DNA from: Eubacteriales bacterium
GTDB taxonomy: Bacteria > Bacillota > Clostridia > Oscillospirales > CAG-272
Length of the DNA stretch: 64,000 nucleotides
Direction: 5' to 3'
Assembly (NCBI GenBank): GCA_045643945.1
Contig: JAZRGA010000052.1
Span: 15,311 to 79,310 of the forward strand
The notes under the pieces were generated by a model. It ran no database searches, was not told where the DNA came from, and saw only the letters and a program-made list of their open reading frames with translations. Shown in pieces: positions 10,560-25,577 of the stretch. A program made the position numbers and the translations under genes. Numbering within the stretch: position 1 is the stretch's first letter; each line of letters starts with the position of its first letter.

Positions 10560-10588
10560 TTGAAATGAAAATAATTCTATGATATAAT
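10560..10588 (+). promoter_or_regulatory. SigA-type promoter for the glgB-malQ/pullulanase operon
   Basis: TTGAAA (10560-10565), 17-nt spacer, TATAAT (10583-10588). It leaves a leader of roughly 100 nt. Confidence 0.45.
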
Positions 10589-10696: not shown

Positions 10697-13600
10697 TTGG
10701 CGGTGATGATTTTGACTAATGAGCTTCATAATTTGCCTGCATATTTGTTCCATCAAGGCACAAATTATAAGGCGTACGAATATTTGGGCGTGCATAAGGA
10801 AAACGGTCGCTACGTTTTCAGAGTTTGGGCGCCTAATGCAGATGCGGTTTATGTGGTAGGTAATTTTAACGTATGGTGCGAGGATATGCCTATGTACCGA
10901 GTTACCGACGGTATTTGGGAATATATCGATAAAGCGCACAGAGTGTCCGAGGGGGATATTTATAAATTCAAAATATGGAATTCCTACAGATGCGTATATA
11001 AGGCTGACCCGTACGGAATTTATTGCGAAAAGAGCCCCGATACTGCTTCTGTTATTTATGAAAGCAATTATAAATGGCAGGATTGCTCTTGGAGAGAGAA
11101 CGCACTCAAAAATGCGGCTGAATATTATAATAAGCCGATGAATATTTATGAGGTGCATCTTGGCTCTTGGAAGAAGAATAGCGACGGAGGGTATTTATCA
11201 TATCTTGAAATCGCAAAGGAGCTTTCCAAATATGTAAAGAAAATGGGATATACACACGTTGAGCTTCTCCCGATAATGGAGCATCCCTTTGACGGCTCGT
11301 GGGGATATCAGGTAGGATGCTATTATGCGCCTACGTCACGCTTCGGTACGCCCGATGAGTTCAGAGCCTTTATCGATATTATGCATAATGAGGGCATTGG
11401 CGTAATACTTGATTGGGTCCCCGCACATTTTCCAAAGGATGCGCACGGACTCTATGAGTTTGACGGTCAACCCTTGTACGAATATCAAGGCTGGGATAGA
11501 ATGGAGCATAAGGGATGGGGCACACGTTGCTTCGACGTTGGACGAAACGAGGTTCAATCCTTCCTTGTTTCTAATGCAATTTATTGGCTCGAGGAATTTC
11601 ACGCAGACGCATTGCGTGTAGATGCGGTTGCCGCGATGCTTTATCTTGATTGCGACAAAGCTCCCGGTGAATGGGTGCCGAACGTATTTGGAGATAACAG
11701 AAATCTTGAATCTATTGCTTTTTTCAAAAAGCTTAATTCGGCTATAAAAAATATGTGTCCGCATGCGTTAATGATTGCTGAGGAGTCATCGGCATTCGGT
11801 AACGTTACGGGATTCCAAAATGACGGACTCGGATTTGATATGAAATGGAATATGGGCTGGATGAACGATACGCTTGAGTATGTTAAGGTCGACCCATTTT
11901 TCAGAAAGCATCATCACGATAAGCTTACCTTTTCGCTTACCTATTCGTTTAGCGAGAAATACGTTCTTCCGATTTCCCACGATGAGGTTGTTCACGGAAA
12001 GCTTTCCTTAATCAATAGAATGTACGGTGATTACAATCAAAAATTTGCGGGCGCGCGTGCTTTTGCAACCTATATGATGACTCATCCCTGCAAGAAGCTT
12101 ACCTTTATGGGAACTGAAATTGGTCAATTCAGCGAATGGGATGAGGTAAAGGGAATTGAATGGTTTTTGCTTGAATATGAGATGCATTCTAAGCTTCAGC
12201 TTTTCCATTCCGAGTTAAACCGTTTTTATCTTGAAAACCCTGCTTTATGGCAAAATGACAGTAATTGGGACGGCTTTGAATGGATAGACCCCGATAACCG
12301 TGAAGAAAGCGTGCTTTCTTACAGACGTATTGATAAAGATGGAAATGAGGTAACCGTTGTTGTAAACTTTACTCCCGTTACGCGCGAGGAATTTACCGTT
12401 GGCGTTTCCGACCTTTGTGCATACAGAGAAGTGTTTAATTCCGATTCCGAAAGATACGGAGGTAGCGGAATATCCAATATCGGAGATATCGAGGCTATGG
12501 ACATTCCTACTCAAAGAGATTCTTATTCAATAAAGATAACCTTGCCCGCTCACGGTGCTATTATTTTGAAAAAGGCTAAGGATGTAAAGCAAGTAAGCGG
12601 TATATACGATATGGAGAAAATATTAAACGGCAAAAATGAATATACGCCGGATAAAGCATTAAAGGAAAAATACGATATGAATTACACTAAAAATTTCGGT
12701 TTTAAAAATAAGGCGGGAGTAGTAATGCCCGTAAGCAGCTTGCCTTCAAAATACGGAATAGGAAGCTTTGGAAAGGCGGCACACGATTTTATTGATTTTC
12801 TCGATGCAACGGGACAAAAATGCTGGCAGGTGCTTCCTTTGAATCCTACCTCTTACGGTGATAGCCCATATCAATCCCCCTCATCGGTAGCGGGAAATCC
12901 CTATTTTATCGACCTTGATATACTTGCGCAAAAGGGACTTCTCACAAAGGAGGAGCTTGAGGAGCAAAAGAACGATTCTGAAAAGGTAGATTACGGCAGA
13001 CTCTTTAACGTAAGATACGTTGCTTTGCGCACAGCCTTCGGTCGATTTGCTCCCGATAAGGAGTATAAGGCCTTCGTAAAGAAAAACGCTTCTTGGCTTG
13101 AGGATTATGCGCTCTTTATGGCTCTTAAGGTGCACTATGGATTTGCACAGTGGACAAGCTGGAGCGAGGAGCATCGTAACTATAAAAAGGCTATCGAGCT
13201 TAAGGCAGATTTTGAAGATGAAATGTCCTTCTGGAGATGGATTCAGTATGAATTTGCGGCAGAGTGGAAGGATATACTTCGCCACGCTCACGAAAAGGAT
13301 ATTATGTTGATTGGTGATATGCCTATCTACGTTGCGCACGACAGTATGGACGTTTGGTCTGCGCCCGAGCAGTTCTTGCTTGATGAAGACTTTAATCCTA
13401 CCGTTGTTGCAGGTTGTCCCCCCGACGGATTTTCTCCCGACGGTCAGCTTTGGGGAAATCCGATATATAACTGGGAGCTTATGGAGAAGGACGGATTTTC
13501 TTGGTGGGTAAACCGTGTTCACCTTGCGTTTTCTCTTTATGATATTCTTCGTATCGACCATTTCAGAGGATTTGCGGGATATTATAATATTCCCTACGGT

Positions 13601-14167
13601 GATGCTACGGCAAGAAACGGAAAATGGGATGCCGCCCCCGGTATTGCATTGTTCAGTAAGATTGCAGAGGTATTCCCGAAGGCAAAAATTATTGCAGAGG
13701 ACCTTGGATTTATAACCGATGACGTTCGTGAGCTTTTGCTTCACGCAGGTTGTCCCGGAATGAAGATGCTTCACTTTGCATTTTACGATGAGGACAGCGA
13801 ATATCTTCCCAGAACCTACGATACGAAAAACTGCGTTGTATACGCATCCTCGCACGATTCCGATTGCACATATTCTTGGCTTAAGAATCTCGATAAGGAT
13901 GCTAAAAAGCGCTTTAATAAGGAATGCCCCAGAAACAAGGAGCAGAGCCGAGTTTATGACGTTATAGAGCTTGCGTTTACGAGTATTGCAAACCTTGCAA
14001 TAGTACCTATGCAGGATTATTTGGAGCTTTCAAATGAGGAGGGAAGAATGAATACTCCCGCCACTGCAGAGGGTAACTGGGCGTGGAGAATAAGTCCTCG
14101 TTATAATACCGCAAAGCTTCGTGAAAAAATGTTAGCTCTTGCCGAAAAAACAGGCAGAGCGAAATAA
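10697..14167 (+). CDS. glgB-malQ: Fusion protein: 1,4-alpha-glucan branching enzyme (GH13_9) plus 4-alpha-glucanotransferase/amylomaltase (GH77)
   Basis: Residues ~1-625 carry GlgB motifs: DWVPAHF, ALRVDAVAAMLY, MIAEES, SHDEVVHGK. Residues ~680-1156 carry MalQ motifs: GVVMPVSSLPSKYGIGSFG, GDMPIYVAHDSMDVW, LRIDHFRGF, IAEDLG. It is one uninterrupted 1156-codon ORF. The exact start is ambiguous (TTG 10697, GTG 10703 or ATG 10706). Confidence 0.85.
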   Translation: MAVMILTNELHNLPAYLFHQGTNYKAYEYLGVHKENGRYVFRVWAPNADAVYVVGNFNVWCEDMPMYRVTDGIWEYIDKAHRVSEGDIYKFKIWNSYRCVYKADPYGIYCEKSPDTASVIYESNYKWQDCSWRENALKNAAEYYNKPMNIYEVHLGSWKKNSDGGYLSYLEIAKELSKYVKKMGYTHVELLPIMEHPFDGSWGYQVGCYYAPTSRFGTPDEFRAFIDIMHNEGIGVILDWVPAHFPKDAHGLYEFDGQPLYEYQGWDRMEHKGWGTRCFDVGRNEVQSFLVSNAIYWLEEFHADALRVDAVAAMLYLDCDKAPGEWVPNVFGDNRNLESIAFFKKLNSAIKNMCPHALMIAEESSAFGNVTGFQNDGLGFDMKWNMGWMNDTLEYVKVDPFFRKHHHDKLTFSLTYSFSEKYVLPISHDEVVHGKLSLINRMYGDYNQKFAGARAFATYMMTHPCKKLTFMGTEIGQFSEWDEVKGIEWFLLEYEMHSKLQLFHSELNRFYLENPALWQNDSNWDGFEWIDPDNREESVLSYRRIDKDGNEVTVVVNFTPVTREEFTVGVSDLCAYREVFNSDSERYGGSGISNIGDIEAMDIPTQRDSYSIKITLPAHGAIILKKAKDVKQVSGIYDMEKILNGKNEYTPDKALKEKYDMNYTKNFGFKNKAGVVMPVSSLPSKYGIGSFGKAAHDFIDFLDATGQKCWQVLPLNPTSYGDSPYQSPSSVAGNPYFIDLDILAQKGLLTKEELEEQKNDSEKVDYGRLFNVRYVALRTAFGRFAPDKEYKAFVKKNASWLEDYALFMALKVHYGFAQWTSWSEEHRNYKKAIELKADFEDEMSFWRWIQYEFAAEWKDILRHAHEKDIMLIGDMPIYVAHDSMDVWSAPEQFLLDEDFNPTVVAGCPPDGFSPDGQLWGNPIYNWELMEKDGFSWWVNRVHLAFSLYDILRIDHFRGFAGYYNIPYGDATARNGKWDAAPGIALFSKIAEVFPKAKIIAEDLGFITDDVRELLLHAGCPGMKMLHFAFYDEDSEYLPRTYDTKNCVVYASSHDSDCTYSWLKNLDKDAKKRFNKECPRNKEQSRVYDVIELAFTSIANLAIVPMQDYLELSNEEGRMNTPATAEGNWAWRISPRYNTAKLREKMLALAEKTGRAK

Positions 14168-14185
14168 GGAATTTTGGAGGTACAT

Positions 14186-18191
<4,006 letters not shown>

Positions 18192-18217: not shown

Positions 18218-19816
18218 ATGAGAAAAATACGTAAAATTTTAACTTTATTTTTGGCGGTGACGATTATGCTTACCTCGCTTGCGAGTTTTGGGTGTGAAAA
18301 AGAGCAAGCTCCCAAGGTCGACGATATCGATGATAATTTCAGAACCTTTTATCAAATATTCGTAGGCTCATTTTCCGATTCAAATGGCGACGGCATAGGT
18401 GATATAAGAGGAATTATTAATAGATTTGACTATTTGAACGACGGTGACGTTAACTCGGGAAAGAGTCTTGGCGTGCAGGGAATATGGCTTTCTCCTATCT
18501 TTTCCTCTCCGTCATATCATAAGTATGATGCGACCGATTACTATAAAATAGATTGGCGCTTCGGAACTGAGGAGGATTTGAAGGAGCTTATAGCCCTCTG
18601 TCACGAAAGAAACGTCAAGCTTATACTTGACGTGGCTATAAATCATACCTCGGAGCAGCATTCTTGGTTTATGAATTTTAAGAGTGCGAGAATGAACGGA
18701 GATACCTCGAATAAGTATTATGATTATTATACCGCAGTTACTACCGACCAAAAGATAAACGGTAACACTTATCAAAAAATTGCGGGAGTGGATTATTGGT
18801 TTGAGTGCAATTTTTCGGGTAGCATGCCCGAGCTTAATTTTGACAATTCCGAGGTAAGAAATGAAGCGTTGAATATTGCCAAATATTATCTTGACCTCGG
18901 TGTCGACGGATTTAGATTTGATGCTATAAAATACATCTATTACGGTAATACTAATGCCAACGTTGATTTTTGGAATTGGTATATGTCAGAGCTTAGAAAG
19001 ATAAAGTCCGATATTTATTGCGTTGGAGAGTGCTGGTCGGGCGATACCGAAATACTCGAATATTATGAGGCTATGGATTGCTTCGGCTTTGGATTCTCTC
19101 AGCAAGAGGGCGTTATTTCGGTTGCGGCAAAGGGAATGAGCTATCTTTCAAATTACACTAATTACGTCGAATCTTGGCAAAAGAGAATAATTGAAAAAAA
19201 TCCTAACGGTATGGTTATGTCATTCCTTTCCAATCACGATATGGATAGAATTGCAGGCGCTTTTGTTACTGAAAATAATATGAGAATGGCGGCTAACTTG
19301 AATATCTTCACCCCCGGCTCTCCGTTTATTTACTACGGTGAGGAATTGGGTATGCGGGGCTCTCGAGGCTCGGCTAATACCGATGCAAACAGAAGACTTG
19401 CTATGCTTTGGGGAGATGATGATATTATTAAAGACCCTACGGGCGCAAATTATCCTGAGGCAAATCAGATAAAATCAACGGTTGCACAGCAAATAGAAGA
19501 TGAAAACAGTCTTTATAATTACTATTGTGAGCTTATTGCATTGAGAAATAAGTACAAGGCTATAGGACGCGGAATTTATAATTCACTTGGAACGTCCGAG
19601 AAAAATCTTGGCGGATTTCTTATTGATTATAACGGAGAAAAGCTTGTTATCATTCATAACACATCAACCGAGGAGATAAGCTATAATTTGTCTGAATGCG
19701 CAGACCTTGAGGGCGTTGAAATATCCGAGCTTTGCGATTTTATCGGGGTTGGTGATGCCGAGCTTGACGGAAATATGCTCACCGTTGGACCTCAAACAAG
19801 TGTAATTTTGAAGTAA
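18218..19816 (+). CDS. GH13 alpha-amylase-family lipoprotein
   Basis: Signal and lipobox MLTSLASFGC. Motifs FYQIFVGSFSDSNGDGIGD, DVAINHTS, GVDGFRFDAIKY, VGECW, FLSNHDMDR. Confidence 0.8.
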   Translation: MRKIRKILTLFLAVTIMLTSLASFGCEKEQAPKVDDIDDNFRTFYQIFVGSFSDSNGDGIGDIRGIINRFDYLNDGDVNSGKSLGVQGIWLSPIFSSPSYHKYDATDYYKIDWRFGTEEDLKELIALCHERNVKLILDVAINHTSEQHSWFMNFKSARMNGDTSNKYYDYYTAVTTDQKINGNTYQKIAGVDYWFECNFSGSMPELNFDNSEVRNEALNIAKYYLDLGVDGFRFDAIKYIYYGNTNANVDFWNWYMSELRKIKSDIYCVGECWSGDTEILEYYEAMDCFGFGFSQQEGVISVAAKGMSYLSNYTNYVESWQKRIIEKNPNGMVMSFLSNHDMDRIAGAFVTENNMRMAANLNIFTPGSPFIYYGEELGMRGSRGSANTDANRRLAMLWGDDDIIKDPTGANYPEANQIKSTVAQQIEDENSLYNYYCELIALRNKYKAIGRGIYNSLGTSEKNLGGFLIDYNGEKLVIIHNTSTEEISYNLSECADLEGVEISELCDFIGVGDAELDGNMLTVGPQTSVILK

Positions 19817-19941: not shown

Positions 19942-19970
19942 TTGACAAAACACGTTAAAAGTGATATTAT
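19942..19970 (+). promoter_or_regulatory. Strong SigA-type promoter (extended -10) for the binding-protein gene
   Basis: TTGACA (19942-19947), 17-nt spacer ending in TGa, then TATTAT (19965-19970). Confidence 0.55.
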
Positions 19971-20011
19971 ATATATGCTTTATAGCAAAAAAAAACAGGA
20001 GGAAAACTCGT

Positions 20012-21553
20012 ATGAAAATGAGAAAGCTTTTAGCTCTCACACTCGCTCTTCTTATGATGGTTTCTGCACTCGCAGCTTGCGGCAACAATAATAATGAAGA
20101 CGAAACAAACAAGCCGAGCGGCGACGCTAATGCTGAGCTTGCCGGCACTTACGACATTACCATGTGGGTTTCCGAAAAAGAAGGCGTTGCTGATCAGTTC
20201 AAAACTCAGATCGCAGACTTTATGAAGGAAAATCCCGGTATTGTTATCAACGCTTCTATTGAAGGCGTTACCGAGGCAGATGCAGGTTCTAAGGTAGTTG
20301 CAGACGTTGCAACCGCTCCCGACATTTACTGCTTCGCACAGGACCAGCTCGCACGTCTTGTACAGGCTGCTGCTCTCGCAGCTCCCGGTAAGAAGGCAAC
20401 CGAGGAAATCAAGGCTAACAACGATGCAGGCTCTGTAGCAGCTGCTTCCGTTGCAGGCACCGTTTACGCTTATCCTATGACAAGCGACAACGGCTATTAT
20501 ATGTACTATAACAAGAGCATCGTTACAGACCCCGAGAATCTTGAGAAGATTATCGCTGACTGTGAGGCAAACAACGTAAAGATTCGTTTCGCTCTTGAGA
20601 ATGCATGGTACACCGCTTCCTTCTTCTTTGCAACAGGTTGTACTTCTACCTGGACCATGGATGAAAACGGACAGTTCGTTGCTATCAACGATGACTTCAA
20701 CTCTGACAAGGGTATGGCTGCGATGAAGGGTATGAAGATGCTTGCTCAGTCCAAGGCTTACGATTCTAACGCTGATATCTTCACCGATGCAGGCGTTGTT
20801 GTAACAGGTATTTGGAATGCACAGGCTGCAGCAGATCACTTCGGTGATAACCTCGCTGCTACCGACCTTCCTTCTTTCACTGTAGACGGTAAGTCTTACC
20901 ACCTCGGCTCTTACTCCGGTAACAAGCTTATGGGTGTTAAGCCTCAGTCCGATGCTAAGAGAGGCGCAGTTCTTTCGCTCCTCGCTCAGTACCTTACCGG
21001 TGAGAAGTGCCAGAATGATAGATTTGCAAGCTTCGAGTGGGGCCCCTCTAACAAGAAGGCTCAGTCTTCCGAGGCAGTTCAGAAGAACATTTCTCTTGCA
21101 GCTCTTGCAAAGCAGAACGCTTTTGCAACTCCTCAGGGTCAGATCGGCGGCGCTTGGTGGGATATAGCTAAGGTTCTTGGCGCAGACGCTAAGGCAGCAG
21201 CTGATGATGCAGCTCTTAAGGCATCTCTTGAGAACTACGTTAAGGCTATCAATTCTTGGTTGGAAATTCCCCCCGAGAAGAGAGAGGCTTGGACGGTTAT
21301 CGGTAATGTTGGTGGAACAAACTGGGATACCGACTTTACTATGACTGAGGATCCTAAGGGCACTTGGACCTCTGTTGCTATCGATATGGCAGCAGGAAAT
21401 GAGTTCAAGGTTCGTCAGGGACTCTCTTGGGATAACAACTACGGTGCAAACGGTGAGAACAACGGTGCAAACATTGTTGTTGAAACCGCAGGCAAGTACA
21501 AGGTTAAGCTCGTTCTTGGCGATACCGTAACTGTTGAGCTTATTCCCGCTTAA
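20012..21553 (+). CDS. Maltodextrin/alpha-glucan ABC transporter substrate-binding lipoprotein with an extra C-terminal beta-sandwich (CBM-like) domain
   Basis: Start at ATG 20012, 9 nt after AGGAGG. Lipobox MMVSALAAC. MalE-like body. The C-terminal ~88 aa read WTVIGNVGGTNWDTDFTMTEDPKGTWTSVAIDMAAGNEFKVRQGLSWDNNYGANG...GKYKVKLV. Codon usage is markedly biased (gct/ggt/ctc/ttc), as in highly expressed genes. Confidence 0.8.
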   Translation: MKMRKLLALTLALLMMVSALAACGNNNNEDETNKPSGDANAELAGTYDITMWVSEKEGVADQFKTQIADFMKENPGIVINASIEGVTEADAGSKVVADVATAPDIYCFAQDQLARLVQAAALAAPGKKATEEIKANNDAGSVAAASVAGTVYAYPMTSDNGYYMYYNKSIVTDPENLEKIIADCEANNVKIRFALENAWYTASFFFATGCTSTWTMDENGQFVAINDDFNSDKGMAAMKGMKMLAQSKAYDSNADIFTDAGVVVTGIWNAQAAADHFGDNLAATDLPSFTVDGKSYHLGSYSGNKLMGVKPQSDAKRGAVLSLLAQYLTGEKCQNDRFASFEWGPSNKKAQSSEAVQKNISLAALAKQNAFATPQGQIGGAWWDIAKVLGADAKAAADDAALKASLENYVKAINSWLEIPPEKREAWTVIGNVGGTNWDTDFTMTEDPKGTWTSVAIDMAAGNEFKVRQGLSWDNNYGANGENNGANIVVETAGKYKVKLVLGDTVTVELIPA

Positions 21554-21617: not shown

Positions 21618-21680
21618 GGCATTGTTAGCCTACATACAAGGACGACAGTTGTCTTGTGTTTGGGCTAATAATGCCTTTTT
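21618..21680 (+). terminator. Long compound hairpin with a U-tract (partial terminator/attenuator between the binding-protein and permease genes)
   Basis: GGCATTGTTAGCC (21618-21630) pairs with GGCTAATAATGCC (21663-21675, one G-U). An inner ACAAG..CTTGT hairpin is present. TTTTT follows (21676-21680). Confidence 0.55.
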
Positions 21681-21723
21681 ATCATATAAAGGAGTCAGTA
21701 TAAATTTATTTTATGCGTTTGTT

Positions 21724-23283
21724 ATGAAAAAATTAAACGATTTAGAATATTTAAAACTAAATAAATTTAAAGCCTTTTGGTATAATGTGCTGCTCTTCTT
21801 TTGCGCAATTCCGACATGGTTTAAAAATCTCGGAAAGAAGATTGGCAGTGGTATATTAGGCTGCGGTCTTGGCATAAAAAATGAAGTGCTTGACATAGGC
21901 TCTACCTTTGCTAAGGGCAATTGGGCGGTAAAAATATCGTTCTTTATTTTTGGATTTGGTAATTTTTATTATGGACAGATACTTAGAGGAATACTTTTCC
22001 TCTTGTTCGAAATAGTGTTTATCGCTTATATGGCTTTGCCCAGTGGCGGTATTTATTGGCTTTCTAAATGTAATTGGTTTCAGAAGGGCGTTACTGTCGG
22101 TACCGTTCAGGGCGAAATGGTTTATAATGAAATTTACGATACACAATCGTGGGTTCCCGGTGATGACTCGGTAAAGGTTCTTCTTTACGGATTGCTTACG
22201 GTTATTTTCATTGTAGCATTTATATACACATGGCGTCTTCAGGTTAAGCAGTGCCGCTTGTGTATGGATATAACCGCAAAGGGTAAAAAGGTAAAAAGTG
22301 GTAGTAGCGACCTTAAATCGCTTCTTGACGATCAGTTCCACAAAACTCTTTTGGCACTTCCGTTGTTTGGCATTTTTGCGTTTACTGTGCTTCCCATAAT
22401 ATTTATGGTGCTTATAGCATTTACAAGCTATGATGCGGCTCACGACGGTTATTCTAACCTCTTTACTTGGGTTGGATTTGACCACTTTAACGAAATATTC
22501 AATTTCGAAGCAGGCGGACTCGGACTTACCTTCGGAGAGATACTCTCGTGGACTCTTATGTGGGCATTCTTTGCAACCTTTACTAACTATTTCCTTGGTA
22601 TGCTCGTTGCAATAATGATTAATAAAAAGGGAATTAAGATTAAAAAATTCTGGAGAACGGTTCTCGTTATGACGATAGCAATTCCTCAGTTTGTTTCGCT
22701 TTTGTATGTTTCGAGAGCATTTGGCTCATCAGGACTTATAGGTAGAGTTCTCGGAGAAATTCCGTTTATAGATAATTATTTGTTCACGAATAATTTCGTT
22801 TCTCTTTGGGACTCTCCGATAATTGCAAAGGTATTGCTTATAGTAATTAATATTTGGGTAGGTATTCCTTATATTATGCTTATGGCAACGGGTATTCTTA
22901 TGAATATTCCTCAGGACCTTTATGAATCGGCAAAGATTGACGGTGCAAACGGTACTCAGCAGTTTATGAAGATTACACTTCCTTATATGCTCTTTGTAAC
23001 AGGTCCGTATTTGCTTACAAGCTTTGTAGGAAACCTTAATAACTTTAACGTTATTTATCTTCTTTCGGAAGGAAACCCGATAAAGGGAGTTGCGGGCGGA
23101 GCATCTGTCGGACATACCGATTTGCTTATAACGTGGCTCTTTAAGATGACGTTCGGAAGTACGGAAAGTAAATATTATATGGCATCTATCGTAGGTATTT
23201 TGATATTCGTGGTAGTTGCGGTGCTTTCGCTTATCATCTATAATGTAATTCCGTCAAGTAAGAATGAGGAGGATTACAAGTAA
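21724..23283 (+). CDS. malF: Sugar ABC transporter permease, MalF-like
   Basis: 519 aa starting at MKKLNDLEYLKL. Multi-TM, with an EAA loop (ESAKIDGANGTQQFMKITLP). The ORF-track start at 21622 lies inside the upstream terminator hairpin and is rejected. Confidence 0.78.
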   Translation: MKKLNDLEYLKLNKFKAFWYNVLLFFCAIPTWFKNLGKKIGSGILGCGLGIKNEVLDIGSTFAKGNWAVKISFFIFGFGNFYYGQILRGILFLLFEIVFIAYMALPSGGIYWLSKCNWFQKGVTVGTVQGEMVYNEIYDTQSWVPGDDSVKVLLYGLLTVIFIVAFIYTWRLQVKQCRLCMDITAKGKKVKSGSSDLKSLLDDQFHKTLLALPLFGIFAFTVLPIIFMVLIAFTSYDAAHDGYSNLFTWVGFDHFNEIFNFEAGGLGLTFGEILSWTLMWAFFATFTNYFLGMLVAIMINKKGIKIKKFWRTVLVMTIAIPQFVSLLYVSRAFGSSGLIGRVLGEIPFIDNYLFTNNFVSLWDSPIIAKVLLIVINIWVGIPYIMLMATGILMNIPQDLYESAKIDGANGTQQFMKITLPYMLFVTGPYLLTSFVGNLNNFNVIYLLSEGNPIKGVAGGASVGHTDLLITWLFKMTFGSTESKYYMASIVGILIFVVVAVLSLIIYNVIPSSKNEEDYK

Positions 23284-23285
23284 TT

Positions 23286-24392
23286 ATGGCAAATAATATG
23301 AAATCATTAAAGAAACAGCTTAAAGAGCAGGAAAAGCTTGCAAACAAGGAAAAGGCTCAAGCATTAAAGGAAAGCAAAGAGAAGCGCGCTAACGAGATTG
23401 CTTTACTTTTAAATGAAGCAAGCGAGTTGAGAAAAGAAGCTAAAATTTTGAAAAAAGCCGATAAAGCTCTCGCCGATGATAAGCTCTCGCGCGCTAAAGA
23501 ACTCGAAGAAAATGCTCGCAATATAAAGAATAGCGGCAAAAAGAGCCTTGGTATTAAGACGAGCAGACGCATAGGTAACTTTGTAATATATACGTTACTT
23601 ATCGCTATGACTGTTATTTGGCTTGCACCCTTCGTTGGTATTGTTCTTGAGTCCTTTAAGGCGGAAACTACAATGCAGACTCCTTATCTTTTACCAAAGG
23701 AATGGGGATTAAAGCATTATATTAGACTTTTCACCGAAACAGACTTTATGAAATGGTTTATAAATACCGCAATAATGGGCGTTGCTACTGCGGTTTTGCA
23801 GACGGTATTCGTTCTTGCGATGAGCTACGTTCTTTCCCGTATGAGATTTAAGGGCAGAAAGGCTCTTATGAACTTTATGCTTATTCTCGGAATGTTCCCA
23901 GGATTTCTTACGATGATACTCATTTATAAGGTATTTTCCGATGCGGGACTTACTATGAATATGGCGCCTCTCGGACTTATTATCGTTTATTGCGCAAGCA
24001 GTGCTATGGGCTATTACGTTTCAAAGGGCTTCTTCGATACTATTCCTAAGAGCCTTGATGAAGCAGCAAGAGTTGACGGCGCTACACGATTTCAGGTATT
24101 TTATAAGGTTATAATGCCCCTTTCAAAGCCGATAGTTATTTATACTGTTCTTATGGGATTTATGGCTCCTTGGGGTGACTTTATGATGGCAAGCTATCTT
24201 ATACACGAAAACAGCCAGGGTATGAACGTTGCAGTTGGTATGTTTGAGTGGCTTTCAAGAACTAATCTCAATTCTTATTATACAATGTTCTGCGCGGCAG
24301 GCGTAATTGTAGCAATTCCCGTTGTAATAGTATTCCTCGCACTTCAAAAATATTACGTTGAAGGCGTTACGGGTGGAGCAGTTAAAGGTTAA
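23286..24392 (+). CDS. malG: Sugar ABC transporter permease, MalG-like, with a ~95-aa Lys/Glu-rich N-terminal extension
   Basis: EAA loop EAARVDGATRFQVFYKVIMP and 6 TM segments. The N-terminus MANNMKSLKKQLKEQEKLANKEKAQALKESKEKRANE... is predicted to be a charged helix. Confidence 0.78.
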   Translation: MANNMKSLKKQLKEQEKLANKEKAQALKESKEKRANEIALLLNEASELRKEAKILKKADKALADDKLSRAKELEENARNIKNSGKKSLGIKTSRRIGNFVIYTLLIAMTVIWLAPFVGIVLESFKAETTMQTPYLLPKEWGLKHYIRLFTETDFMKWFINTAIMGVATAVLQTVFVLAMSYVLSRMRFKGRKALMNFMLILGMFPGFLTMILIYKVFSDAGLTMNMAPLGLIIVYCASSAMGYYVSKGFFDTIPKSLDEAARVDGATRFQVFYKVIMPLSKPIVIYTVLMGFMAPWGDFMMASYLIHENSQGMNVAVGMFEWLSRTNLNSYYTMFCAAGVIVAIPVVIVFLALQKYYVEGVTGGAVKG

Positions 24393-24404: not shown

Positions 24405-25529
24405 ATGGCAAGTGTTAAATTAACTAATGTAAAAAAGATATACGGCAAGGATACGGTTGCTGTTCAGGATTTCAACCTCGATATTGCCGATAAAGAATTT
24501 ATAGTATTCGTAGGACCGTCAGGATGCGGTAAATCCACGACTCTCCGTATGATTGCGGGTCTTGAGGATATTTCTGCGGGAACTGTTGAAATTGACGGAG
24601 TTGTAGTTAACGATCTTCAGCCCCGCGACCGTGATATAGCAATGGTATTCCAAAACTATGCGCTTTATCCGCATTTAACGGTATTTGAAAATATGGCGTT
24701 TAGCCTTCGTCTTAAGAAGGTGTCGCAGGATGAGGTTTATGAAAGAGTAACTCAGGCTGCGGAAATTCTCGGTATTACACAGTACCTTACCAGAAAGCCG
24801 AGAGCGCTTTCGGGTGGTCAGCGTCAGAGAGTCGCTATCGGACGCGCTATGGTTAGAGATAGTAAGGTTTTCCTTATGGACGAGCCGCTTTCTAACCTTG
24901 ATGCAAAGCTTCGTAATCAGATGAGAGCAGAAATTATTTTGCTCCGTCAAAAGATTGATACTACTTTTATTTATGTAACTCACGACCAGACCGAGGCTAT
25001 GACGCTTGGCGACCGTATTGTTATTATGAAGGATGGCTTCATTCAGCAGGTCGGAACACCAACAGAGGTGTTTGATATGCCTAAAAACCTTTTTGTAGCG
25101 GAGTTTATTGGTGCACCTAAGATGAATACCTTTAAAACTCAGCTCGTTCGCGAAAACGGTAAATATTACGTTACACCTTACGGAGCAAAGATTGAGGTTA
25201 GCGGTAAGAAGGCAGAACAGCTCGCAGAGAGGGGCGTAGATACACAGGAAATAATTTTGGGCGTTCGTCCTGAGCATATTATTCTTGCAGATTCTTCTGA
25301 CCCCGCAGCTATACCTTGTAAGATAGTTGTAAACGAAATGATGGGAAGCGAACTTCATATTCACGCAGTTGAGGATAACGGTGATAAGCTTATCGTTCGT
25401 ATTCCTACTATTCGCTTGACTGATGAGGAAAGAAAATCTCTTGTTTACGGTACAACGATTTACGTAACCTTCGAAAGTAAGGTAATGCATTTCTTCAATA
25501 AGGATACAGAGGAAAATCTTCTCGTTTAA
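24405..25529 (+). CDS. msmK: Sugar ABC transporter ATP-binding protein (MsmK/MalK/UgpC type)
   Basis: Walker A GPSGCGKST, signature LSGGQRQRVAIGRA, Walker B VFLMDEPLSNLDA, and a C-terminal regulatory (TOBE) domain. Confidence 0.9.
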   Translation: MASVKLTNVKKIYGKDTVAVQDFNLDIADKEFIVFVGPSGCGKSTTLRMIAGLEDISAGTVEIDGVVVNDLQPRDRDIAMVFQNYALYPHLTVFENMAFSLRLKKVSQDEVYERVTQAAEILGITQYLTRKPRALSGGQRQRVAIGRAMVRDSKVFLMDEPLSNLDAKLRNQMRAEIILLRQKIDTTFIYVTHDQTEAMTLGDRIVIMKDGFIQQVGTPTEVFDMPKNLFVAEFIGAPKMNTFKTQLVRENGKYYVTPYGAKIEVSGKKAEQLAERGVDTQEIILGVRPEHIILADSSDPAAIPCKIVVNEMMGSELHIHAVEDNGDKLIVRIPTIRLTDEERKSLVYGTTIYVTFESKVMHFFNKDTEENLLV

Positions 25530-25550
25530 TCAGTATTGAATCAATAAAAG

Positions 25551-25577
25551 GCATCGGTGAAATATCCGATGCTTTTT
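25551..25577 (+). terminator. Rho-independent terminator of the transporter operon
   Basis: GCATCGG (25551-25557) pairs with CCGATGC (25565-25571), followed by TTTTTT. Confidence 0.6.

Follow-up and report, generated by a model that had tools for sequence, protein, structure and literature searches.

The fused gene and its two enzymes

The window analysed here, a stretch of 64,000 nucleotides from the genome of an uncultured Eubacteriales bacterium, one of the gut Clostridia (G000 in what follows), contains a gene that encodes a glycogen branching enzyme, GlgB, and an amylomaltase (4-alpha-glucanotransferase), MalQ, in a single chain of 1156 amino acids (aa). The gene heads a locus for the breakdown and import of starch (Table 1). 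An earlier note on this DNA had claimed just such a polypeptide, uninterrupted by stop or frameshift, at the head of a locus that imports maltodextrins, and the claim holds. The reading frame is open over all 1156 codons, with no stops and no frameshifts; Pfam and NCBIfam find both enzymes within it; the eight catalytic motifs that had been quoted are all present in the translation; and the lipoproteins and the ATP-binding cassette (ABC) importer encoded downstream bear out the nature of the locus. The gene begins with TTG, at the position where its homologues have ATG, within a conserved start context, ATGGCGGTGA.

Table 1. Features of the fused gene, of its locus and of related loci. Positions without a prefix are those of the window.
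Feature	Location	Strand	Basis or detail
Sigma-70-like promoter candidate	10560..10588	+	TTGAAA-17-TATAAT with TG; consensus match 11/12, extended -10
glgB::malQ fusion gene, 1156 aa	10697..14167	+	Open reading frame, Pfam, NCBIfam
GlgB module, aa 1-629	10697..12583	+	CBM48, GH13_9 catalytic domain, C-terminal beta domain
Interdomain linker, aa 630-660 (~31 aa)	12584..12676	+	Lys/Glu/Asp-rich; from the former malQ 5' leader
Retained malQ translation start	12662..12679	+	AAGGA 12662-12666, 10-nt spacer, ATG 12677 (Met661)
MalQ module, aa 661-1156	12677..14167	+	GH77 4-alpha-glucanotransferase
Type I pullulanase	14174..16864	+	PUD-CBM48-GH13; lipoprotein signal peptide, LVAC lipobox
GH53-family lipoprotein	16848..18191	+	
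GH13 alpha-amylase-family lipoprotein	18218..19816	+	SFGC lipobox
Second promoter-like site	19942-19970		Before the binding-protein gene
Sugar-binding lipoprotein of ABC importer	19961..21553	+	Probable start ATG 20012
MalF-like permease	21622-23283	+	
MalG-like permease	23286-24392	+	
MsmK/MalK-type ATPase	24405..25529	+	
Terminator-like hairpin	25546-25577		After msmK
GlgB2, 593 aa, GlgB paralogue	C60:12736-14517	-	Heads glgC-glgD-glgA-glgP
GlgB2 orthologues	L047:17021-18793, L051:2726-4438, L052:7848-9632, L053:7282-9096, L054:386-2176		
GH13_8-type branching enzyme in L007	L007:1-1542	+	

On the GlgB side, Pfam finds CBM48 (CBM_48) at aa 30-107, the GH13 catalytic domain (Alpha-amylase) and Alpha-amylase_C at aa 529-625. 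The GlgB equivalog of NCBIfam, NF008967, scores 839 bits over aa 12-629, where the cut-off is 577, and two further GlgB models are also above theirs (NF003811, 825 vs 741 bits; TIGR01515, 762 vs 464 bits). The best sequence matches in the PDB are to GlgBs of subfamily GH13_9 (3K1D, 5GQU and 1M7X, with E from 1e-167 to 3e-177), while branching enzymes of the eukaryote type reach only E 1e-42. The catalytic set of GH13 regions I-IV (Asp nucleophile, Glu acid/base, Asp stabiliser and two His) is complete: D239/H244 of region I, R307/D309 with the nucleophile, E362 as acid/base and H428/D429 are kept in this protein and in all eight of the fused homologue clusters described below.

On the MalQ side, Glyco_hydro_77 (PF02446) covers aa 677-1133 with E 1.7e-164, taking in profile positions 1-460 of 465. 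The MalQ subfamily model NF011080 scores 589 bits (cut-off 477) over aa 669-1154, and TIGR00217 scores 327 (cut-off 206). Here the PDB matches are to amylomaltases of the Thermus/Aquifex type (1TZ7, 2OWC and 1CWY, about 1e-123). Residues D954 (nucleophile), E1001 and H1053/D1054 occupy invariant columns in an alignment of 74 rows, and D954, E1001 and D1054 do so in an alignment of 36 MalQ sequences as well; the Asp of RIDH, the Glu of EDLG and the Asp of SHD make up the GH77 catalytic triad. This is the only GH77 protein in G000. The fusion protein has no signal peptide and so should be cytoplasmic; lipoboxes are found on the pullulanase, the GH53 protein, the amylase and the binding protein of the same locus. 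Judged by these features, both halves are complete and apparently catalytically competent, the GlgB half expected to branch and the MalQ half to disproportionate alpha-1,4 chains.

The fusion is far from confined to one assembly. A search of 5.8 billion proteins found the same four domains, at full length, in eight clusters that are 76-87% identical over 99-100% coverage and stem from separate ENA and Logan assemblies. One of these clusters is found on two contigs from different samples, and the downstream genes are alike. In collections of one genome per species, two others besides G000 have it, G247 (87%) and G241 (81%), both of the same genus, so the search for relatives that the earlier note had suggested finds the fusion open in other clusters and other species alike. 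Every catalytic motif is kept in all nine fused clusters defined at 90% identity. Between G000 and G247, the ratio of nonsynonymous to synonymous substitution rates (dN/dS) comes to about 0.066 in the GlgB half and about 0.056 in the MalQ half, similar to the neighbouring genes, though these are rough values, as dS is saturated (0.7-2.2). Both halves are under purifying selection.

The junction

The C-terminus of GlgB (ending in ILKKAKD) is followed by a stretch of 20-32 aa whose length and sequence are particular to each fused lineage, and then by the unchanged N-terminus of MalQ, NYTKNFGFK. The sole constant piece is the end of the linker, conserved as L-K-E-x-Y-x-M. In all four fused DNA sequences examined, this end encompasses a Shine-Dalgarno-like AAGGA and an ATG, in register within the open reading frame and spaced exactly as they are in the unfused malQ of sister species. 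The conserved end of the linker is the old ribosome-binding site and start codon of malQ, translated, and the anatomy of the junction shows that the fusion was made by loss of the glgB stop codon together with most of the malQ leader. Alignment with unfused MalQ places the ancestral N-terminus at Met661, which makes the newly created linker about 31 aa long, not the 55 or so first estimated. It is possible that free MalQ is still made from the internal start.

An AlphaFold2 model of the full protein, built on a mixed alignment of 74 rows, gives the linker (aa 632-666) a predicted local distance difference test score (pLDDT) below 50. The MalQ half is modelled with confidence and the GlgB catalytic domain poorly (pLDDT 30-50 over much of aa 190-530), the predicted template modelling score being 0.50. 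The linker is unconstrained, is disordered in the model, and gives no indication of a fixed interface. The most that can be claimed for the tether is co-expression, proximity and a fixed 1:1 stoichiometry of the two enzymes, with no tunnel between them.

Origin of the fusion

Three of the 72 species of the genus have the fusion, and it is absent from a sample of 200 other genomes of the family. In about 30 related species (NCBI names Oscillospiraceae, Faecousia, Ca. Pelethomonas and 'Eubacteriales bacterium') a stand-alone malQ heads the series malQ-pulA-GH53-amylase-binding protein-malF-malG-msmK. An intermediate state, with glgB next to malQ and unfused, is found in none of these loci.

Where did the GlgB half come from? 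Its nearest unfused relatives, 75% identical (in G245, in G255 and on a JGI metagenome contig), all head operons of the order glgB-glgC-glgD-glgA-glgP. All ten fused halves group together in the GlgB tree (support 99), within the operon-type GlgBs of G245 and G255 and with that of G245 as sister. In the MalQ tree the clade of the fused halves, supported at 98, includes unfused MalQ as well, from G245 and from two other loci. The organisms themselves are less close: RpoB of G000 is 97% identical to that of G247 and 90% to that of G246, yet only 80% to that of G245, and species at an RpoB distance similar to G245 have GlgB only about 64% and MalQ about 45% identical. In both halves, then, G000 stands nearer to the G245 lineage than it does by RpoB, and I infer that these genes were exchanged laterally within the genus.

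By the trees and the junction, the fusion has a single origin within a small clade: a glgB of the operon type known from a sister lineage came to lie ahead of malQ, the gene that opens a conserved starch operon. The start context given above, typical of the donor-type glgB, survives in the fused gene. A second element, TTTTTGCACATTTTGG, is found some 60-90 nt upstream of operon-type glgB (L048, L009 and L010) and also upstream of the fusion gene of G241 (L013), and is possibly a glg promoter or operator. The glg operon of G247 is the immediate upstream neighbour of the fusion and shares its strand; in G000 and in L007 the genes upstream are different. The difference implies that the fusion travels with the starch operon, and it is at the head of that operon, on contig C52, that the fused gene of G000 lies, not at the head of glgCDAP.

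The rest of the locus needs few words. The promoter candidate about 110 nt 5' of the fusion gene is the best of its region, as judged by match to consensus only. The lipobox of the pullulanase places that enzyme outside the cell. GH53 is the endo-beta-1,4-galactanase family, an odd one to meet in an alpha-glucan locus, and a GH53 gene lies between those for pullulanase and amylase in about 25 related starch loci. The MalG-like permease has an N-terminal extension of about 90 residues, rich in Lys and Glu (23286-23580, plus strand).

The branching enzyme of the glycogen operon

The earlier note had reported neither glgC nor glgA, and indeed neither is in the window. Looking elsewhere in the genome, as was then advised, finds both: contig C60 of G000 carries glgB2-glgC-glgD-glgA-glgP-amy, in that order, where amy encodes a cytoplasmic GH13 enzyme of the neopullulanase/cyclomaltodextrinase type. 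The genes glgC, glgD, glgA and glgP are intact and under purifying selection. The genome has one GT35 phosphorylase.

The gene at the head of this operon is another matter. GlgB2 is 37-39% identical to the fused GlgB and scores 460 bits, where the GlgB cut-off is 577. Where the fused protein has DWVPAHF in region I, GlgB2 has DIPIVAF; where it has RVDAVAAM in region II, GlgB2 has KISAVDEL, so that the nucleophilic Asp is replaced by Ser; and where it has SHDEV in region IV, GlgB2 has GHVDL. The His of region I and the His-Asp of region IV are therefore gone as well, and by its sequence the operon GlgB2 is catalytically dead. The same decay is seen in G247, G241, G246, G264 and G208, with an intermediate state in G205. 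The dead copies make up a single clade of long branches (support 100) with a topology that broadly fits the ranking of RpoB identities. In at least six species GlgB2 is nonetheless an intact open reading frame. Its dN/dS is about 0.1, and its dN is two- to threefold higher than in GlgC and GlgA, which implies that constraint has been relaxed and not lost. GlgB2 may be a conserved pseudo-enzyme with no catalytic role. A search of the literature on dead operon GlgB found nothing relevant.

Such proteins may be widespread. Seven catalytic or conserved positions of GH13 were compared in some 140 GlgB-like representatives of clusters at 50% identity (within P0122-P0271), and about 38 of these differ at one position at least, a count that alignment errors may have inflated, and several of the GlgB-like representatives have Gly at the position of the nucleophile (P0130, P0144, P0158 and P0189, for example).

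How then do these organisms branch their glycogen? Every species checked that has a dead GlgB2 also has another branching enzyme. A branching enzyme of the GH13_8 type, eukaryote-like, about 670 aa long and with intact motifs, is patchily distributed over the genus, occurring in 28 of 72 genomes. It is present in G208, G246, G264 and G205; G241 and the lineage of L007 have both this enzyme and the fusion; and G000 and G247 lack it and have the fusion only. In G000, tblastn with a GH13_8 enzyme matches only the fusion and the dead copy, a search of the genus for the enzyme gave no match in this genome, and no GH57 branching enzyme was found there either. The fused GlgB is probably the only competent branching enzyme of G000, and it follows that it probably also branches the chains made by GlgA. 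The genus thus offers an evolutionary series: an unfused sister, species with the fusion and a GH13_8 enzyme as backup, and species with the fusion alone.

A proposed role for the fusion

I propose, with moderate confidence, that the fusion protein is bifunctional and cytoplasmic, with both of its halves active, MalQ elongating imported maltodextrins and GlgB branching the products, and that its GlgB half branches the chains made by GlgA besides. Starch would be cleaved outside the cell by the lipoprotein pullulanase and amylase, and the resulting maltodextrins would enter through the ABC importer. The MalQ half would disproportionate them to glucose and longer alpha-1,4 chains. The GlgB half, present in equal amount and in the same place, would cut chains longer than a degree of polymerization of about 10 and re-attach the pieces to the 6-OH through alpha-1,6 bonds. 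Branching is effectively irreversible and disproportionation is reversible, so the two would make an elongation-branching cycle in which small oligomers are consumed much as in polymerization. Branching would pull the equilibrium of MalQ towards a soluble, glycogen-like polymer, built at none of the ATP cost of the GlgC/GlgA route and mobilised later by GlgP and the cytoplasmic GH13 enzyme of the glg operon.

The chemistry has precedent. Ensembles of a branching enzyme and a 4-alpha-glucanotransferase are described as alternating between elongation and branching and as using up oligomers 'in a polymerization-like process' (PMC13515694, section 3.1), and the maltose enzymes of E. coli are stated to contribute to glycogen synthesis (PMC10395257, in a passage citing Park 2011). 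By this analogy, a link between elongation by MalQ and branching by GlgB is biochemically plausible. It speaks for such a link, too, that gut Clostridia often join MalQ to a user of its products, the phosphorylase domain PF00343. What the earlier note had put forward, a path to branched storage glucan independent of ADP-glucose, is plausible as to the coupling of MalQ with GlgB and mistaken as to its setting, since the ADP-glucose route, with glgC, glgD, glgA and glgP, is not lacking.

Several observations weigh against the proposal. The presence of GlgC and GlgA means that storage need not depend on MalQ. A linker so variable, together with a retained ribosome-binding site and ATG for malQ, implies that free MalQ may also arise and that the tether may not matter kinetically, and the AlphaFold2 model is too weak to judge the arrangement of the domains or any interface between them. 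G000 is a metagenome-assembled genome, 95.9% complete and in 77 contigs, so a GH13_8 enzyme, present after all in the fused lineages L007 and G241, could lie in the missing part. Finally, no biochemical work on a natural GlgB/MalQ fusion, assays included, came to light in the literature searched.

A bolder version of the proposal would have the clade rewired, with branching delivered only together with MalQ and under control of the starch operon, the tethered pair acting as an ATP-free 'polymerase' kinetically superior to the separated enzymes, and GlgB2 serving as a non-enzymatic, glucan-binding partner of GlgC, GlgD and GlgA. This much I find decidedly doubtful.

Alternative explanations

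The most serious alternative, possible though in my view unlikely, is that the fusion was an accident of gene replacement. An active glgB from a neighbouring lineage would have replaced a decayed operon copy and become fused only because the site in front of malQ offered a promoter and a reading frame. The domains would be independent, GlgB would be occupied mainly with chains made by GlgA, and synthesis coupled to MalQ would never have been selected. Much of what was presented above suits such a history: G000 has a dead GlgB in its operon, and the searches brought up no branching enzyme there besides the fusion; as a xenologue, the fused GlgB branches from within the operon GlgBs of G245 and G255; the linker is free to vary, and malQ still has its own ribosome-binding site and ATG inside the frame; and the fusion of G241 still has upstream of it the element typical of donor-type glgB genes. 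It is harder to reconcile an accident with the persistence of its result. The fusion is intact down to 76% identity in nine or more lineages, with no case of re-splitting, and it has been kept even in lineages that have a GH13_8 branching enzyme (L007 and G241). Moreover, fusions of GH77 with GH13_9 have arisen repeatedly elsewhere, in both orders, and the repetition argues for a link that can be selected.

It is less probable still that the fusion is a helper of catabolism only. On this account branching prevents long chains from coming out of solution and provides more non-reducing ends, which lets the single GT35 phosphorylase drain imported maltodextrin faster, and the polymer is transient and no store at all. 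The gene does lie within a catabolic starch operon, in a genome with one phosphorylase and one MalQ, and many relatives fuse MalQ directly to phosphorylase, which indicates that hand-off from MalQ to phosphorolysis is under selection. Branch points, however, block phosphorylase and call for debranching, a costly arrangement if throughput were all that mattered, and the full set of GlgC, GlgD and GlgA shows that the cell stores glycogen.

A third account, that the fusion replaces GlgC and GlgA with ADP-glucose-independent storage and passes substrate directly from one active site to the other, can point to nothing beyond the existence of the fusion and its place as first gene of an import locus. 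I consider it very improbable. The first part is largely refuted by the intact glgC, glgD, glgA and glgP on C60, held by purifying selection. The second, the substrate channelling that the earlier note had suggested, is difficult to square with a linker that varies from about 20 to 32 aa, that has nothing conserved apart from the translated remnant of a ribosome-binding site, and that is predicted to be disordered.

That the gene is an artefact of sequencing or assembly, or a decaying pseudo-fusion with one inactive half, has next to no chance of being right, and I reject both ideas in view of the open fusion's recurrence, at 76-87% identity, in assemblies from ENA, Logan and GenBank that are independent of one another, the complete catalytic motifs in all nine clusters and dN/dS near 0.06.

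Comparison with known systems

The fusion is a natural test case: a compact protein of 1156 aa, from a mesophilic gut anaerobe, with close unfused relatives of its two halves at 75% and 89% identity. The question it addresses is whether tethering a reversible, elongating transferase to an irreversible branching enzyme gives glycogen from maltodextrins free of ATP cost, and the evolutionary series described above makes the question tractable by experiment. The answer bears on how gut Clostridia capture and hoard the products of starch breakdown. It bears also on the enzymatic making of highly branched, slowly digestible glucans, for which the two enzymes are now mixed. The intact but dead GlgB at the head of glg operons, for its part, warns against reading branching capacity from annotation alone and raises the possibility of a non-catalytic role.

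The architecture as such is not the novelty that it was first taken for. Of the 150 best representatives of clusters at 50% identity, 13 carry both GH77 and GH13_9, ten in the order MalQ-GlgB and three in the order GlgB-MalQ, and all 13 are at most 47% identical to the present fusion, which makes them independent lineages. A MalQ-GlgB fusion has also been noted in the glycogen/amylosucrase gene cluster of Neisseria sicca in a 2024 review (Chem Rev 2024, PMC11046441), which gives no enzymology for it. What is new here is an independent and recent origin, with GlgB N-terminal, within a starch-utilisation operon, and coupled to decay of the resident operon GlgB.

The Neisseria sicca protein is the obvious counterpart, combining GH77 and a GH13 branching enzyme in one chain, with neighbouring genes that provide alpha-1,4 chains without GlgA. 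It differs in that MalQ is N-terminal there and GlgB here, in that the context is amylosucrase in one case and a starch import operon in the other, and in phylum. The two are independent in origin, the present fusion having arisen inside one Oscillospiraceae-type genus.

In its proposed chemistry the fusion resembles the MalQ and GlgB of E. coli, which as separate proteins act on dextrins derived from maltose (Park et al. 2011, J Bacteriol 193:2517, as cited in PMC10395257 and PMC4301808), elongation and branching of dextrins giving glycogen with no need of GlgA. So far as those citing articles describe it, the E. coli system consists of two proteins from different operons, with an active GlgB in the glg operon, whereas here the two are fused and the operon copy is dead. 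The in-vitro ensembles of Rhodothermus branching enzyme and Thermus 4-alpha-glucanotransferase (PMC13515694) run the same elongation-branching cycle, raising molecular weight and branch density. These are mixtures of separate thermophile enzymes devised for modification of starch, and they imply neither a natural fusion nor a physiological role.

Nearer in habitat and class are the fusions of MalQ with phosphorylase (PF02446 plus PF00343, about 1250-1330 aa), which are very common in gut Clostridia, with dozens of clusters, and in Collinsella (P0275-P0382). There too MalQ is tethered to a consumer of its long-chain products; the partner, however, is a GT35 enzyme C-terminal of MalQ, where here it is a GH13_9 enzyme N-terminal of it. 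Other fusions of MalQ were seen with domains like the PF03372 endonuclease/phosphatase and with GNAT and HAD domains. NF011083, a bifunctional GlgX/4-alpha-glucanotransferase of about 1186 aa, has like the present fusion a GH13 part followed by GH77 in one chain. The present protein nevertheless scores only 449 bits with that model, far below the cut-off of 1322, and only its MalQ part aligns, to the C-terminal part of that family. The GH13 part of NF011083 resembles the cytoplasmic GH13 enzyme of this genome's own glg operon (495 bits), not GlgB.

The dead GlgB2 has its parallel as well. Criblamydiaceae and Waddliaceae have a GlgA-GlgB fusion in which the branching domain is inactive (PMC11046441, section 7.2), and there, as here, an inactive GlgB sequence has been kept while another GlgB does the work. 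In those families the dead domain lies inside the fusion and the GlgE pathway takes over, whereas in the clade described here it is the stand-alone operon gene that appears dead and the fused copy that appears alive.

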